A stretch of DNA of 64,000 nt from Trichodelitschia bisporula. Taxonomy: Eukaryota. The number at the start of each line of letters is the position of its first letter. Positions within the stretch are counted from its first letter, which is position 1. Where the stretch lies: contig ML996691.1 in assembly GCA_010356995.1 (NCBI GenBank), positions 1,370,174-1,434,173 on the forward strand. The letters run 5' to 3'. Shown here in pieces: positions 5,637 to 11,302 of this stretch. Both the position numbers and the translations under genes were made by a program. The notes beneath the pieces are model-generated. The model saw nothing but the letters and a program-made list of their open reading frames with translations, ran no database searches and was not told the origin of the DNA.

Positions 5637-7410
5637 GGAATGTGGCAGTTGGGAAAGACCTTAGGTGGAATACAATCTAAAAGAACGGCAAGCAAAAAGC
5701 TCGTCGTCTCGAGATAGCGGAGGAGCCACGAACAATCCCGGAAGACTTTTACTGGGCTTCGACCACGTACATTGCGGACTGGGATCCTTCACACGGCCAG
5801 GATGGTGCTTCACTCCAAAAAGGACGAGTGGCATCAGTGGGCTCGATTCTCAAAACTTGGAACGCTCCGCACCGCGTGCTCTACGGCGGAAAGGAGCACT
5901 GTAGGTGCACCACTCTGACGAAAGAGCAAAAAAGAATCACAAACATACAGCAGTTGGGATTCGCTGCTGGTCACCCACGCAACTACTAGTCAACCGGTTC
6001 GAAGCTTAACTTCAGTGAGCAGACGGGGACTGGTGTGTCTCTTCGACCTATGGCCGTATGTGCTGGACTGCGGCGCGGACTTGATTATACTGGAGAGGTT
6101 TGTGGATCTTGGCCCATCTTCACCGTCGGTGGAGGTCGGCAGAAGAAGCCTCCAGAGTGCAAGCTGTGTATTGGATAGTAAGGGTATAGTAGCTACTAGG
6201 AACCGGATGGTGCTGATATCACCCTCAGCCTTGCCAAGCCTGGATGATATCTTACGAGCAGGCAGTGCTCTCCCCGTGTTCAGGGTGATGTCCCTGGCCA
6301 TGGATTTTCGAGTCGCGGAATGAATCGCAGGCAGTCATCAGGCTCTGCTTCACTGCTGCCGAAGCCGGCCTTGAGTCTGCGGCTCCCCAGAGACAGAGGG
6401 CCAGCCCTGACCTTGCGGGGAGGAGCTCCGGTATCTTGCTAGCTGCGCTTCGTGTCGCTTGACCATAGCATACAAGTCAGATAGCTATCGGGCGTTAAGC
6501 TCGCTTGATACCGTAGGACTTCATAACAGATGATTGCATCGTAGGGAGGACCGTCGGCCACGGTTTACTAATTGCTCCAGCATTCCTCGGGCTGCTCTTT
6601 TCCAAATCCTCCCAACACCCTCAGTTCGACAACATGTGAATATGTAGTACAAGGCACATCGTCCTACTGTGATCCAGCGAAGACCCGTCATTAGCCCACC
6701 ACTCCGCACTTGCACAAACGCCGGGGCCAACCCATACCCATACCTCCGTACTGAGATATGTAGTTATGCACCTTCCATCCAACCCCCACAGCACCAACAC
6801 CACAGCCACACCCAACTCCCCGCCAACACATTCCCCTATCTACGGAGTACTGCGTACAGGCCTCAGCAGCCCCTGCCTATCCGCAGCCAGGGCTTCGACC
6901 GGGGCATATTGGCTGTGGCTGGGCGCGCACCCAACGTGGGGCCCAGACCTCGTCGGGCCTGGCATATTGCAACACGCTTCTCTCAATATGGCCTGATTCA
7001 CCACGACTGCATTAATACTCCCAACTCCCACTTCCAAACCTCATCTTCATCGCCGTCGACGTCGTCCACCTCGCAATCACGTGCCCCCGCAGCCTGAAAC
7101 TCGAAACACAGCCCTACCCCTCCCCTCCAGCCCCCGTCATACTCAGCTGCGCCTCCCGCCCTTGGCCCCGCTGCGCCCCACGCTAAGGCCGGCCCGCTCA
7201 GCACTACGCTTCTAGGGGCCCGCACATGCGACGGCGCGCGCGCTGAATAAACGGCGACGTTTAACCTCCCTCGACTGCAAGCTGACTTGAGTCGCTCCTT
7301 TGTCTACGTTGAACGGCTGCACTTTGACGACATCGAGAACCCGCCCTACACCGCTACGATCTCGCTGTGCTCGCTGCGCTCGCGTGCTCGATCGCTCCGC
7401 AACCGCAACC

Positions 7411-8117: not shown

Positions 8118-9922
8118 TTATCCCTTAAATGCCCTCCCAGCAGTCCTCTTCCGCGCCCTCACCCGTGCCAAATCCTCCGCCGCGCGCTCCTTTATCCACT
8201 CGCACGAGTCAACAAAGACACACGTCCCACATTTGTAGGCATGCTCTATGTCGACTCCCCTTGCCGGACGCTCCCCCCGCCACCACCGCATCGTCTCCTT
8301 GACGTATGCCAACAACCCCTCCTCATCATACCCAAACACCTTCCGCCCAATAAACTCCCCCTCCGCACTCAAATACGCCGCCTCCATAACGAGCCCAACG
8401 CCCTCTTGTCCAATCGCCGCTGCATACTCCGCCTGAACAAGGCGCCACAGCGCGCCCAGCGTGCGATACTCATTCGCCTCCCCCGTCCCAGTCTTCTCCT
8501 CACGGTCCCCGTTCTTCAAATCCTCCTCCGTGCCTTTATCCGCCATGCCGCCCACAAACTCCTCACTGAACTCCTCCTCAGGATCAAGGCCCACTCTATT
8601 CCAAATCATCTCGGGGCTAAACTCCCCATTCACCATCTGCGCCAAAAAGCGCCGGTACAAACCGAGCTGCACCTGCGTCCCCTTGAGCTGCGGCGCGGGG
8701 GGCAAAGACTTGGACCCGCGCGTCTTGACGTCCGTAACGTACACCCTCCTCTTCTCCTTCTCCCCCTTCGAAAACGCGTCCAGTCTCACGCGCCCCCGCC
8801 CCGGCGCTGGGTAGGCTAGCTTCGCTCCCGAAAACGCGAGCGCGACTTGCAGCTCGGAATCCGGACAGCTGTACCCCACCTCATCGATAACACCCACGAC
8901 CAGCACACCCTCCACAGACCCCCAGACCTCGAGCTCACGCGTCCTCCCCGTCGCCCTCAACGCCCTCAACCCAGTAATAACATTCCACAACCTTAGCGCC
9001 CAGCGGTCGACCTTGGTCTGCACCGGCACAGGCACAAACTCGTGTACCTCCGCCTCCAGCGCGGCATGTACATTTGTGCCGGATATCATGCGCGCTGTGC
9101 GCGGCAATTTTCCGAAGCGCGACAGGGCGTAATCGTACTGAAGCTCACACCAGGCGGGGCTGGTCAAGTCGGTCACGCTAAGATTGCGTGGGGGCGCTCG
9201 GAAGCGTGCGAGGGGGGAGGAAGATGTAGGCGCCGGGCGGGCGAGGGCGTGCAGCGGGGGCGGGGCAGCTTCGTGCGCGGGACTCGGGGTGTGGTTTGGA
9301 TCTGGCGGGGTGGGCGGGGGTAATACTGCAGACTGTGAGGATCAGACACAGCCGGTTAGGGGGAGAGAGGCTTACTGTTTCCGAGAAGGGATTTAGTGCC
9401 TCCGCTGCCTTTGACTTCGATCGCGATTTTCGCTGCTTCTTGTTTGACGGCGGGGCGGGGGCGGAGGGGGGTTCGGGGGCCGGCGTCCTCGATGTCAGGC
9501 TCGGTTCTGGCGGTTGTGTGTCCGTTTCCGTTTCCCTTGGTTCTAGAGTTTTCGACGTCGGCTCCGCGGCCCAGGCCTTGACTTCCTCCCTGAACAACTC
9601 CACGGGACTCGCCCCGCACGTCCTCGCCCTCGCCACCACCGCCGTCGTAAACATCCGCGGGGCCGACTGCACCCTTAGGCTCACCAGTCTGCCCACCAGC
9701 CTCAAAGGCAGCGGCAAAGTCCACACTCTGTGTATCCCCATTCCCATTGCTGAGTGCATTCGCGCCGAGCGGTGAATTCTCCTGCTCGGCGGCGTTTGCG
9801 GAAAAGGAGCGTACTTCGACGCCCGAGAATTGGGATAGGAGATTGCGGACGATTTCCTCGCCCTCGTCGTCAAAGTCGCTGCCGTAGTCGCTGTTTATAC
9901 TGGGAGTGCTGGTGAGGCCCAT
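8118..9922 (-). CDS. EXO5: Exonuclease V (EXO5/DEM1 family); exons 9922-9376, 9325-8118
   Basis: LSVTDLTSPAWCELQY, RELEVWG, VGVIDE, DVKTRGS and C-terminal KCxxCxFxxxCEW Fe-S cysteines; intron 9326-9375. Confidence 0.9.
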
Positions 9923-10176
9923 CGTTGACGATGTATGCTGCAGTAGTGTGTGGGGGGGGAGGGGGGGCGCGCGGATGCGCCGGCGCGTATGTGGTGCGGT
10001 TGCGTTTGTGGAGCGGAAGCGTGCGTTTACGGTAGTGTGTTTGGGTCACGTGGGAGGCTGATGGTGGGGATGCGGTTGAGTGTGATGTCAAGGCTACGGG
10101 CATTGGAGTCTGCCTGCAATCGAGGCCTATAACTCTATCATTCACATTACCTATTCACCCCCCCTCCATGGAGTAT

Positions 10177-10465
10177 AAAAATGCTTCACAGAGCAAAAAG
10201 CTCGGCTCTGGCAAGTCATGCCAGACTTACGAAAACCCCTTCACCAGGATTTTACTACTGCCCCAACACCGTCGTCACGGGGGACAGGTGCTTCACTCCG
10301 TCGTCACGGAGGAGCGACTACTCCGTTCCGTCGTCACGGAAGACTAGTTTCCTGTCGACGAGTCCTGCCAGCGAGCTTCGAACGCGTTCTCTCTGAACCG
10401 TCCCTCGACTGGGTGGAATCTTCCTGTTTCGTGACGACCACGAAATTACCTGCGCCAGTTTGGGC
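10177..10465 (-). ncRNA. Candidate Pol III structured RNA / tRNA-headed SINE, copy 1
   Basis: Minus strand: A-box-like TGGCGCAGGT (10457-10448), B-box-like GTTCGAAGC (~10383-10375), several hairpins, T5 runs at 10199-10195 and 10181-10177; homologous to copy 2. Confidence 0.4.
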
Positions 10466-10752
10466 TTAGGGGCCAGCAGTTGGTTGATACTGTGTTTTAT
10501 TCTTAAGCCGAACGGGGGGTCAGATGAAGGCTTTTAGTTCTGGTGGATGTGTTAGATGCAATTGCAGAACAGTAAGAGTTTCTTCAACTGACTAGAACTA
10601 CGTATGTGGTCTGCGATATTGGATGCGAGCCGATCCAAATGCGATGCCAGTTCAGAATCTCGGTAAAAGGCAAGCAAAAGCGTAATGCAAAGTACTGCTT
10701 ATTTCCCGCCGTAGGTGAACCTCCGCGGTTCAAAAACAAGCGTTTAAGAGCG

Positions 10753-10783
10753 ATGAGATGCGTGAGATGCGTGAGATGCGTGA
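10753..10783. repeat. Short tandem repeat (TGAGATGCG)x3
   Basis: Read directly. Confidence 0.75.
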
Positions 10784-10896
10784 ATTGAATTGTTGCCCGG
10801 AAGAGGTGCTTCAGAGAAAGTTAAGTTAAAAATGGTTCGATGAGGCGCTTCTTCCACGAGTCACTTCGGGATCCTCACCGCTGCCGCGATGCGGAC

Positions 10897-11160
10897 AAAA
10901 AATGCTTCAAAGAGCAAAGACCTCAACTGTGACAAGAATCTTTACTTGCCAGATCTATGAAAACCCCTTTCGGGATTTTACAACTGCCATCTCCTTCTTG
11001 GATGGTGTACAAATCTTTGCTCGTGAACGAAATCTCAAAGACATCGCTCTCCGAGTGCTGCCAGCGAGGTTCGAACGCGCTCCCTCAGGACCCGCGCCCT
11101 CAACTGGGTTCTTCTGGTTCGAGCCTCTCCAAAGACAACCCGACCACTAACCACATCACT
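10897..11160 (-). ncRNA. Candidate Pol III structured RNA / tRNA-headed SINE, copy 2
   Basis: Minus strand: A-box-like TGGTTAGTGGT (11153-11143), B-box GTTCGAACC (~11076-11068), GAAA-tetraloop hairpin (10979-10960), long-range helix, T6 end (10902-10897). Confidence 0.45.
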
Positions 11161-11302
11161 TCAGCGATTGGTGCTAGCACCTGAAAAAAACAAAAAAACA
11201 TTCATAATTGTGATTGGCGTAGTAATAGCAAGCATTGACGCGACGTAGGTACATCCGACTTCGTGAACCTCCAAAGAGCCACTCGCCCATGCCTTCCACA
11301 CC

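Follow-up and report, generated by a model that had tools for sequence, protein, structure and literature searches.

The data support the existence, in the intergenic region between EXO5 and RFT1 of an ascomycete fungus, of two non-coding units that are related to each other and lie on the minus strand; one of them, copy 2, is clearly transcribed. The explanation that we tentatively prefer, giving it a little less than an even chance, is that these units are anciently duplicated small-RNA genes with a type-2 Pol III promoter derived from a tRNA gene, copy 2 being active and copy 1 decaying. Whichever reading holds, the EXO5–RFT1 intergenic region is not empty promoter DNA.

A related pair between EXO5 and RFT1

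All coordinates refer to the window, i.e., the whole 64-kb stretch of DNA that was analysed. The location of the pair between EXO5 and RFT1, as claimed by the first-pass annotation, is borne out by Pfam searches which identify the former gene by its Exo5 domain (PF09810, E 2e-106; 8118-9341, minus strand) and the latter by its Rft-1 domain (PF04506; 11267-12814, plus strand). The units, of roughly 250–290 bases each, and their main subdivisions are the following:

10897-11165, minus strand: copy 2 unit (sequence, homology blocks; covariance-model match of 114.7 bits for 10897-10990)
10177-10460, minus strand: copy 1 unit (sequence, homology; covariance-model match of 106.8 bits for 10176-10264)
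11052-11109, minus strand: conserved head block of copy 2, holding the B box GCGTTCGAACC and CTCGCTGGCAG
10359-10414, minus strand: conserved head block of copy 1, holding the B box GCGTTCGAAGC
10269-10340, minus strand: three CCGUGACGACGG mini-hairpins in tandem, within the variable middle part of copy 1 (sequence, fold)

The 5′ bound of copy 2 is an upper limit, set 12 nt upstream of its A-box-like motif, and its 3′ end is that of a T6 run.

Two 21-nt motifs occur exactly twice each in the window, namely GCGTTCGAANCTCGCTGGCAG at 11078-11058 and 10385-10365 and TTTGCTCTNTGAAGCATTTTT at 10918-10898 and 10197-10177, and for neither of them did any of 100 shuffles yield two or more matches. The blastn similarity between the copies is confined to 11121-10875 and 10431-10155, and consists of a head block (11109-11052 with 10414-10359; 83% over 58 nt) and a 3′ block (10988-10898 with 10262-10177; 76% over 93 nt), the middle parts and the A-box regions giving no alignment; in both copies the homology ends exactly at the T run. 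The 3′ ends lie 721 bp and the B-box blocks 693 bp apart and these spacings, together with the motif counts and the blastn alignments, confirm the earlier description of two diverged direct copies ~720 bp apart. The copy number within the 64 kb, checked by blastn and by a covariance model with filters off, is two, with no third copy; the latter search gave two matches at 107–115 bits and five other listed matches with E values of 3.3–8.7. A search of the window for the complement of the conserved tail returned nothing besides the two copies, and an inverted copy, GUCGUCACG, of the copy-1 mini-hairpin is present at 10438-10430. The blockwise divergence, in which stems are kept while loops and spacers have changed, is the pattern that constraint on an RNA or on a promoter, and not neutral repeats, would leave.

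Transcripts of the locus

Four sequencing runs from two studies were available, none of them recorded as RNA; X3 and X4 were taken as RNA by guess. The RNA evidence consists of contigs from two runs, one sample and one study, which show neither strand nor true ends. In the same runs that gave the contig over copy 2, the introns of EXO5 and RFT1 are spliced out, unlike in the DNA runs. Two products bear on the pair:

10879-11142, putatively minus strand: RNA-derived contig over copy 2 (264 nt, 0 differences, mean word depth 592)
10122-10809, minus strand: rare spliced non-coding transcript (exons 10809-10593 and 10539-10122; depth 7.4)

The 264-nt contig has sharp ends, covers copy 2 and takes in none of the flanking intergenic DNA; minus is the strand that we infer for this RNA. 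Its depth in X4 (592 as against 368 and 69) is of a kind by which genes cannot be ranked, and the gaps that separate the contigs (10879/10809 and, before EXO5, 10122-9977) cannot show separate transcripts. In X3 there is no cover over 10847-11301 despite a greater depth over EXO5 and RFT1, a hole that proves nothing as to polyadenylation or condition-dependent expression. At its start, 11142, the copy-2 contig lies 2 nt downstream of the A-box-like motif, which implies either that the 5′ end was processed or not captured, or that the motif lies outside the transcript.

The spliced transcript takes in the spacer and, within its second exon, the whole of copy 1, whose last T5 it overruns by 55 nt; it holds no ATG-initiated ORF of at least 25 aa. 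Its 53-nt intron (10592-10540) reads GTCAGT..CTAAC..CAG, the joint appearing as CT..AC on the plus strand, and inasmuch as copy 1 lies inside a transcript spliced in this manner (GT..AG, CTAAC branch), RNA polymerase II must cross it. Copy 1 is probably either decaying or differently regulated.

Promoter-like boxes and T runs

The elements that could direct transcription by Pol III are listed below.

11078-11068, minus strand: B box GCGTTCGAACC of copy 2 (motif search)
10385-10375, minus strand: B box GCGTTCGAAGC of copy 1 (motif search)
11144-11153, minus strand: A-box-like motif of copy 2, TGGTTAGTGG; 75 nt upstream of the B box, narrowly missed by the RNA contig
10449-10457, minus strand: TGGCGCAGG, a looser A-box-like motif in copy 1, 72 nt ahead of its B box; fails the strict pattern
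11116-11125, minus strand: second B-box-like GGCTCGAACC, in copy 2 only (motif search)
11184-11207, minus strand: upstream TTATGAAT followed by T7-G-T7, candidate AT-rich region for TFIIIB/TBP binding
10897-10902, minus strand: T6 run at the end of homology in copy 2, candidate Pol III terminator; its context AUUUUUUG also fits the Sm-site motif
10199-10195 (context CTTTTTGCTC) and 10181-10177, minus strand: two T5 runs of copy 1 (sequence)

The B-box core GCGTTCGA of both copies is identical to the core of the B box GCGTTCGACTC of the tRNA gene of the window, and a B box (GGTTCGANNCC-like) is present in the transcribed region, as in a type-2 Pol III gene. The A box of such a gene is TRGYNNANNGG-like and lies between the start site and the B box. 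The strict A-box pattern, which occurs 0.48 times per kb of strand, is matched in copy 2, where the motif has TGGTCTAGTGG as its counterpart in the tRNA gene, whereas copy 1 matches a looser pattern only; an alternative A box, at +8 of the cloverleaf proposed by ARAGORN, is poor as judged by eye. The A-box-like motifs, which had been placed ~65 nt before a T-arm-like sequence, lie 75 and 72 nt from the B box. Among the 20 GTTCGA[ACT] sites of the window, two have a strict A box 40–100 nt upstream and a run of at least five T within 260 nt downstream, and these are the real tRNA gene and copy 2, which makes the type-2 anatomy of the latter non-trivial. One point against the Pol III reading is the lack of homology between the A-box regions of copies 1 and 2.

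The T7-G-T7 tract upstream of copy 2 would block any Pol III arriving from upstream; as to the known Pol III genes of the window, TATAAT is found 28 nt upstream of the 5S gene and 39 nt upstream of the tRNA gene. Both of these genes end with T5 or T6 followed by GCTC, and copy 1 has the same context in CTTTTTGCTC, at a T5 that is internal, 13 nt before the last one. The interior of copy 2, for its part, has no T run longer than T4. The claim of a candidate Pol III-transcribed pair is upheld in part, by the RNA contig and the type-2 anatomy of copy 2, and weakened by the contig ends, which fit neither the A box nor the T6, and by the internal T5 of copy 1 and its inclusion in a spliced transcript.

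RNA folding

The predicted helices are these:

10979-10972/10967-10960, minus strand: hairpin 1 of copy 2, AAAAUCCC-GAAA-GGGGUUUU, pair probability 0.98
10253-10246/10239-10232, minus strand: hairpin 1 of copy 1, AAAAUCCU-GGUGAA-GGGGUUUU, pair probability 0.53
10951-10945/10936-10930, minus strand: hairpin 2 of copy 2, UGGCAAG/CUUGUCA, pair probability 0.95
10225-10219/10213-10207, minus strand: hairpin 2 of copy 1, UCUGGCA/UGCCAGA, pair probability 0.56
11022-11011 with 10923-10912, minus strand: closing helix of copy 2, 12 bp, pair probability 0.98

All the trailer hairpins described by the first-pass annotation are therefore present in both copies (0.53–0.98), their stems being kept while the loops have changed (GAAA as against GGUGAA in hairpin 1, a 7-nt loop difference in hairpin 2). 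The closing helix, earlier given as 10 bp, extends to 12 bp and is specific to copy 2, a comparison of the folds showing no counterpart in copy 1. The suggestion that wobble pairs point to a minus-strand RNA agrees with the U.G pairs of hairpin 1, which would read A.C on the plus strand. The overall folding stability exceeds that of shuffles only modestly, with z values of -1.5 to -3.1, and is similar for either strand, the minus strand having no advantage. A single double compensatory change is seen, and the helix concerned lies +7 to +11 kcal/mol above the minimum-free-energy fold.

Searches for known families and relatives

That the pair may belong to no described RNA family had been suggested already and stands after a search of Rfam 15, in which the 5S gene at 5942-6061 is the only match of the window at the gathering score. 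At E<=10 copy 2 has no matches and copy 1 is matched by a 21-nt plant-virus pseudoknot model only (E 0.17 and 9.7); a SNORD102 match (E 7.9) falls upstream of the unit. At the same cut-off the tRNA model of Rfam matches neither copy when each is searched alone, and ARAGORN at default settings reports just one tRNA for the window (15302-15385), outside the two units. Relaxing the settings brings up 11139-11055 in copy 2 at -ps80, where the window yields 48 calls in all, and 10459-10362 in copy 1 at -ps75 (the pair then making up two of 127 calls); this is the background level. Of the "tRNA-like head" attributed to these units what exists is the T-arm/B-box-like half, and only that half.

C/D snoRNAs are marked by a C box (RUGAUGA) close to the 5′ end and a D box (CUGA) close to the 3′ end, H/ACA snoRNAs by an H box and an ACA 3 nt from the 3′ end. 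Neither class fits: RTGATGA is found in neither copy and CTGA at 11164 and 11088 of copy 2 only, with none in copy 1, and there is no ACA near either 3′ end. SRP, RNase P/MRP, U4, U5, U3, snR30 and telomerase RNAs were likewise set aside, their likeness consisting of motif resemblances to which Rfam lends no backing.

Further afield, a metagenome scan with the 21-nt B-box block returned one locus, a chance match whose contig is unrelated and shows no likeness outside those 21 nt; among prokaryotic genome contigs 102 loci carry the hairpin-1 pattern, none matching beyond the pattern (best blastn alignment 26–34 nt), and viral contigs gave no locus with the 3′ tail motif. None of these scans brought up an orthologue. 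A scan of the locus for bacterial-type promoters and terminators was uninformative. A full-text search of the literature found no description of such an RNA, which is no proof of absence. The WEIRD RNA of Magnaporthe, 1.1 kb in length, is unrelated in kind (PMC2104539), and the 15 fungal motifs of Li and Breaker, compared by name and description only, include nothing similar (PMC5640933).

A proposed small-RNA gene with a tRNA-derived promoter

The duplication, the conservation in blocks, the expression of copy 2 and the absence of a family in Rfam are established by the analysis. The involvement of Pol III, that of protein partners and any function of the pair are what we infer, and the preferred mechanism is accordingly put in the conditional. 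The RNA would measure ~245–270 nt and its internal promoter would descend from the 3′ half of a tRNA gene. TFIIIC would bind the conserved B box GCGTTCGAA, aided by the A-box-like motif ~72–75 nt upstream, and would set TFIIIB on the upstream AT/T-rich tract; Pol III would then start near 11142-11165 and stop at the T6 (10902-10897) with some read-through. The B-box segment would stay in the RNA and pair with neighbouring conserved sequence, the remainder of the molecule comprising a middle part free to vary, the two conserved hairpins and a single-stranded tail that is conserved as well, UUUGCUCUKUGAAGCA-U(n). A U-run tail of this kind is a 3′ end bound by La/Lsm proteins. Copy 1, with its degenerate A box and its extra internal T5, would leave traces of RNA only, within the spliced Pol II transcript. 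As for function, we would guess at a lineage-specific RNP or regulatory RNA of the BC1, 4.5S or RNA170 type rather than at a housekeeping RNA.

A more ambitious version, which we regard as conceivable though somewhat unlikely, sees in the pair an abundant, lineage-specific Pol III small RNA of filamentous ascomycetes, arisen from an exapted half-tRNA promoter and capable of two states, with both paralogues under selection. The B-box segment would pair alternatively with CCAGUYGAGG on its 5′ side or with CASAGYYGAGS on its 3′ side, two near-identical partners; in the pairing with CASAGYYGAGS the paralogues differ by a compensatory change, from C-G to G-C. The candidate helices are a head helix, CCAG-YGAG/CUCG-CUGG, and, as the alternative, a long-range one (11070-11058 with 10935-10920 in copy 2, 10377-10365 with 10214-10199 in copy 1). 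If true, the two-state reading would provide a fungal counterpart of the BC1 or 4.5S RNAs.

To our knowledge, the fungal Pol III set beyond budding and fission yeast essentially comprises tRNAs, 5S, U6, SRP and RNase P RNA. A Pol III small RNA at this locus would represent a new type of gene to annotate in filamentous ascomycetes and a case of exaptation of a tRNA-gene promoter in fungi, and would offer a natural, compact promoter–terminator cassette useful for guide-RNA expression.

Other explanations

The same small RNA could be made by Pol II from a bidirectional RFT1 promoter, its U run serving as a Sm-type or other protein site followed by a 3′ hairpin and its B-box-like block being kept for structural reasons; we hold this to be unlikely. 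The contig does extend 18 nt past the T6 of copy 2, and these 18 nt can form a CCGC/GCGG hairpin (4 bp; pair probability 0.71) after AUUUUUUG, which fits the A-U4-6-G of a Sm site; furthermore, TTATGAAT and T tracts are present upstream, copy 1 is demonstrably crossed and spliced by Pol II, and the 5′ end of the contig lies ~130 nt from that of the RFT1 transcript (11271), a typical spacing for divergent promoters. In copy 1, however, the putative site reads AUUUUUA, without the G, the sequences past the U run are unrelated between the copies and their hairpins of 3–4 bp are weak, searches at E<=10 return neither snRNA nor snoRNA families, the C, D and ACA boxes are absent in position, and this reading leaves unexplained why A box, B box and T run occur together.

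Improbable to a similar degree is that the units are relics of a low-copy tRNA-derived SINE or retrocopy, akin to AfuSINE2 and transcribed from the internal promoter without any cellular function. The tRNA-related head with degenerate A and B boxes and no cloverleaf would suit such an origin, and so would 7-bp flanking repeats, GAAGTGA (11162-11156 and 10867-10861) and AGGTAAT (10451-10445 and 10152-10146), that bound units of 289 and 292 nt near the ends of the RNA contig. Yet a shared 7-mer turns up in 4472 of 20000 random flank placements (22%), and the windows had been chosen after looking; the repeats would moreover enclose ~30 nt past the T run in which the two copies are unrelated. At the end of the unit there is a T run and no A-rich, simple-repeat or LINE-like tail, the 64 kb hold no third copy, and the DNA contigs are unbroken over 9961-12000, which argues against a young repeat at the 31-mer level. 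Tandem duplication is a simpler origin for two same-strand copies 720 bp apart, and the conservation of stems over loops suggests constraint. Should it turn out to hold an expressed SINE relic, or else a small RNA made by Pol II, the locus would amount to a routine lineage-specific transcript.

It is very improbable that no discrete small-RNA gene exists and that the blocks are DNA elements (TFIIIC/ETC-type or other sites, or an insulator) lying in exons of non-coding or 5′-extended EXO5 transcripts. The spliced transcript over the spacer and copy 1 does have the strand of EXO5, the B box is the best-conserved piece and the structural z-scores are modest, but the copy-2 contig ends on either side and is distinct from that of the spliced transcript, and the 93-nt 3′ domain, with the kept stems of its two hairpins, is also conserved without holding a B box. 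Finally, a small protein-coding pair, be it the plus-strand ORFs 10830-11150 and 10179-10469 or a 29-codon minus-strand ORF of copy 2, can practically be dismissed, one plus-strand frame being open across the whole copy-2 contig (87 codons) but the indels between the copies (2, 5, 7 and 28 nt) being frame-breaking and not multiples of 3, Pfam giving no match, the plus-strand ORF pairs having in common either 10 of 15 residues, within the B-box block, or none, so that no shared stretch exceeds 15 aa, and the 29-codon ORF being stopped, as seen by eye, in copy 1.

Comparison with known systems

Copy 2 resembles the Sm-class snRNAs in that AUUUUUUG would be single-stranded, with a long helix on one side and a small 3′ hairpin on the other; it differs from them in having no family match, in the lack of the G in copy 1 and in 3′ hairpins that are weak and unrelated, a TMG cap and Sm binding being putative here. 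The mammalian BC1 and 4.5SI/4.5SH RNAs are small, abundant and taxon-restricted; their genes have A and B boxes, a TATA-like element upstream and a T run as terminator, and those of 4.5SH are tandemly repeated; these RNAs belong to another kingdom and have no homology to the present pair.

Within the ascomycetes, AfuSINE2 of Aspergillus fumigatus (140–493 bp, low copy number, five of eight transcribed) shares with the pair degenerate A and B boxes and heads without a cloverleaf fold, several of its copies being transcribed; it differs in being dispersed and flanked by target-site duplications of 4–14 bp, while here there are a tandem pair, statistically weak 7-bp repeats and a T-run end (PMC5063351). 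In the dicistronic genes of Yarrowia lipolytica (tRNA-5S, tRNA-Trp-RUF70) and in the plant tRNA-snoRNA genes a tRNA-type head is followed by an unrelated small RNA in a single Pol III transcript; the Yarrowia cases constitute an ascomycete precedent, RUF70 being a partner of unknown function (PMC2566860). Their leader, a real tRNA with a function of its own, is removed by cleavage, whereas here the head is not a tRNA and a single contig bridges head and trailer.

Further parallels are the yeast genes RPR1, SNR52, ZOD1 and RNA170. Leaders with an A and a B box drive RPR1, snR52 and Zod1, just as tRNA leaders drive 5S and RUF70 in Yarrowia (PMC2566860). In RPR1 and SNR52 both boxes reside in a leader that is removed, whereas here the B box lies within the RNA that accumulates (contig 10879-11142); none of the four has sequence similarity to the pair, for which Pol III is the predicted polymerase. 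RNA170 and ZOD1 are, like the pair, without a known function, and all four genes, RPR1 with its 84-nt leader included, share with the pair as read here the production of a non-tRNA RNA from tRNA-type A and B boxes, an end at a T run and the absence of a tRNA fold (PMC2566860, PMC4937561).

Two diverged copies of an expressed feature between Exo5 and Rft-1

The 1.3-kb spacer between the divergent Exo5 and Rft-1 genes of this eukaryotic window contains a real feature that is expressed, carries no annotation and fits none of the described RNA families. It consists of two units, and ordinary Pol III genes, one for 5S rRNA and one for tRNA, flank it at about 4 kb on each side.

Features of the locus
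5942-6061, minus: dispersed 5S rRNA gene (Rfam, 85.6 bits)
8118-9341 and an upstream exon, minus: Exo5 (PF09810, E 2e-106), its closest protein-atlas clusters being mainly Ascomycota
about 10460-10177, minus: copy 1
about 11165-10897, minus: copy 2
11267-12814, plus: Rft-1 (PF04506)
15302-15385, plus: tRNA gene (ARAGORN, default settings)

The isotype of the tRNA gene at 15302-15385 is unstable, being Ser(gct) of 84 nt under the ARAGORN default and Val(aac) when introns are allowed, the 12-nt intron then falling at a non-canonical position; its D arm and loop, judged by eye, presumably resemble those of tRNA-Pro(AGG), with the 12-nt intron at 37/38.

That the units are diverged direct copies, as the first-pass annotation had proposed, is borne out by two minus-strand motifs, GCGTTCGAANCTCGCTGGCAG (11078-11058 and 10385-10365) and TTTGCTCTNTGAAGCATTTTT (10918-10898 and 10197-10177), each occurring exactly twice in the 64 kb, a result equaled by 0 of 100 shuffles (at least two matches for the first motif, two for the second). 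When the two halves of the spacer were compared by permissive blastn, the sole alignment joined 11121-10875 with 10431-10155 and contained two strong blocks, 11109-11052 with 10414-10359 (83% of 58) and 10988-10898 with 10262-10177 (76% of 93); alignment of the copies fails over the 60–90 nt that separate the blocks, over the first 50 nt at the 5′ end and over all sequence past the T run. With filters switched off, a covariance model built on the 3′ domain scored the copies at 114.7 and 106.8 bits and detected no third copy in the window, the next best of the seven matches listed reaching 11.1 bits (E 3.3). An orthologue search by metagenome scan gave one match, by chance, and scans of prokaryotes and viruses for relatives gave chance matches or none.

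The spacer between the copies contains roughly three short tandem units of CGCATCTCA (about 10754-10783, minus) and a third CTCT-N-TGAAGCA motif, TCTCTGAAGCAC (10806-10819, minus), which is preceded by a T5 run (10832-10828), lies right at the contig start of the spliced transcript described below, and could be due to chance or be the tail remnant of another copy.

RNA structure

All the hairpins named in the first-pass annotation are recovered by folding, and between the copies the stems are kept while the loops are changed: hairpin 1 (10979-10960 and 10253-10232; 8 bp) is retained with GAAA vs GGUGAA loops, and hairpin 2 (10951-10930 and 10225-10207), whose loops differ by 7 nt, retains five common pairs, to which copy 2 adds pairs on the inner side and copy 1 on the outer side. 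The proposed closing helix, of 10–12 bp, holds for copy 2 (11022-11011 with 10923-10912; pair probability 0.98) but has no counterpart in copy 1. Folding energy is only moderately below that of shuffles, with z-scores of -1.9 and -2.6 for the two entire units and of -1.5 to -3.1 for sub-regions, and the plus strand gives equally good z-scores, the minus strand being about 17 kcal/mol lower; it is thus the conservation pattern, and not energy, that argues for structure.

In the head a helix CCAG-YGAG/CUCG-CUGG is possible, in which a U-to-C change between the copies converts a U·G pair to C-G. RNAalifold offers an alternative, incompatible with both this helix and hairpin 2, in which the B-box-distal strand (A)SCUCGCUGGCAG forms 13 pairs with the 3′ segment CUUGYCASAGYYGAGSU; here the one position that varies within the B-box block, C in copy 2 and G in copy 1, has a covarying G/C opposite, and two G·U pairs become G-C between the copies. 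The alternative costs 11.5 (copy 2) and 7.2 (copy 1) kcal/mol relative to the minimum-free-energy fold, and a single compensatory pair in two paralogues is suggestive at best.

Each copy also has repeats of its own. Within copy 2, CAGTTGAGG is present twice, at 11106 and 10929 (11088-11108 and 10920-10931, minus), so that the B-box-distal strand CCUCGCUGG has two alternative partners. Copy 1 contains three tandem CCGTGACGACGG mini-hairpins (10269-10340, minus) and an inverted GTCGTCACG upstream (10430-10438), which together can give alternative long-range helices of 8–9 bp and are without equivalent in copy 2.

Transcripts

Four public sequencing runs were compared with the window as contigs: X1 and X2, which are DNA, may have supplied the assembly itself, whereas X3 and X4, both taken from a single sample in a different study, are RNA-derived, since they skip a 50-nt EXO5 intron (9325/9376) and an RFT1 intron (11940/11983), unlike the DNA runs. 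The 38 nt at 10041-10078 recur, with 2 differences, in two long DNA contigs that belong elsewhere in the same genome, one of 22.9 kb from X1 and one of 5.2 kb from X2, so that another locus carries a repeat of this short EXO5 upstream sequence.

Copy 2 is transcribed: a 264-nt X4 contig lies on 10879-11142 with 0 differences, covering the copy without flanking spacer. This RNA is not rare in the X4 library (mean word depth 592, contig depths being unable to rank genes). As to the minus strand postulated earlier, contigs show neither strand nor exact ends, and we infer it from wobble pairing, from the direction of the boxes and T run, and from the transcript over copy 1. The latter, a 635-nt X3 contig on 10122-10539 and 10593-10809, skips 53 nt bounded by CT..AC on the plus strand, i.e., GT..AG on the minus strand, where the intron (10592-10540) reads GTCAGT...CTAAC...CAG. 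It is rare (depth 7.4), spliced, on the same strand as EXO5 and upstream of it, lacks any ATG-ORF of at least 25 codons, takes in spacer and the whole of copy 1, and ends 55 nt beyond the last T run of this copy; it could represent an independent lncRNA or a 5′-extended EXO5 isoform, which contigs cannot tell apart.

Identities excluded

The absence of a known RNA family was confirmed with Rfam 15, which gave no match over the feature at the gathering score; at E≤10 copy 2 alone had 0 matches, and those of copy 1 alone were confined to a plant-virus pseudoknot model of 21 nt (E 0.17 and 9.7). The “tRNA-like head” is not a tRNA: the Rfam tRNA model (E≤10) matches neither copy and ARAGORN at default settings calls nothing at the feature. 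Relaxed to -ps80, the program draws an 85-nt type-II-like cloverleaf at 11139-11055 (acceptor GUUGUC/GGCAGC, T arm GCGCG/CUCGC), among 48 calls in the window, and at -ps75 an additional one at 10459-10362, among 127; the copy-2 call begins 3 nt inside the RNA-contig start and is otherwise unremarkable. A snoRNA is dismissed for want of a C box, terminal D box and terminal ACA, and protein coding because plus-strand ORFs share at most 10/15 residues, have no Pfam match and are broken by indels.

Candidate promoter and terminator elements

In both copies the B-box core, GCGTTCGA, is identical to that of the tRNA gene in the window. Copy 2 has an A-box-like TGGTTAGTGG 75 nt upstream of it (the tRNA gene counterpart being TGGTCTAGTGG) and copy 1 a looser TGGCGCAGG at 72 nt. 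A strict A box 40–100 nt upstream combined with a run of at least five Ts within 260 nt downstream is found at 2 of the 20 GTTCGA[ACT] sites in the window, namely the tRNA gene and copy 2. TTATGAAT and T7-G-T7 (11207-11184) are found upstream of copy 2, AATAAAA (10501) upstream of copy 1, and TATAAT 28 and 39 nt upstream of the 5S and tRNA genes, respectively. Homology between the copies ends at T6 (10902-10897) in copy 2, whose longest internal T run is T4, and at T5 (10181-10177) in copy 1, which has an extra T5 at 10199-10195 (CTTTTTGCTC); a T run with GCTC thus occurs inside copy 1 and also downstream of the 5S gene (T6, then GCTC) and of the tRNA gene (T5+GCTC).

Three observations count against a straightforward Pol III reading: the copy-2 contig begins at 11142, directly after the A-box-like motif; it extends 18 nt past T6; and the A-box regions are non-homologous between the copies. 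As to the extension past T6, termination at a 6U tract is leaky in budding yeast in vivo (PMC4937561), so that a small number of read-through molecules could lengthen the copy-2 contig.

Origin and likely nature of the feature

The block-wise conservation, box anatomy, T-run boundary and discrete RNA are most simply explained if a small-RNA gene with a tRNA-derived internal promoter was duplicated in tandem long ago, copy 2 being active and copy 1 decaying; we hold this reading tentatively, at somewhat short of an even chance. A less likely but live rival is a Pol II small RNA, its U run constituting an Sm-like site. Of equal weight is a SINE-like relic, still expressed, such as the AfuSINE2 elements (PMC5063351): 7-bp direct repeats do flank both copies, bounding units of 289 and 292 nt, but such a repeat arises in 4472 of 20,000 random placements and the windows were picked after looking.

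The gene is most likely of a known kind, namely that of lineage-specific small RNAs driven by a tRNA promoter. Ascomycete precedents (PMC2566860) are provided by the promoters of RPR1, snR52 and Zod1 and by the tRNA-led 5S and RUF70 genes of Yarrowia.
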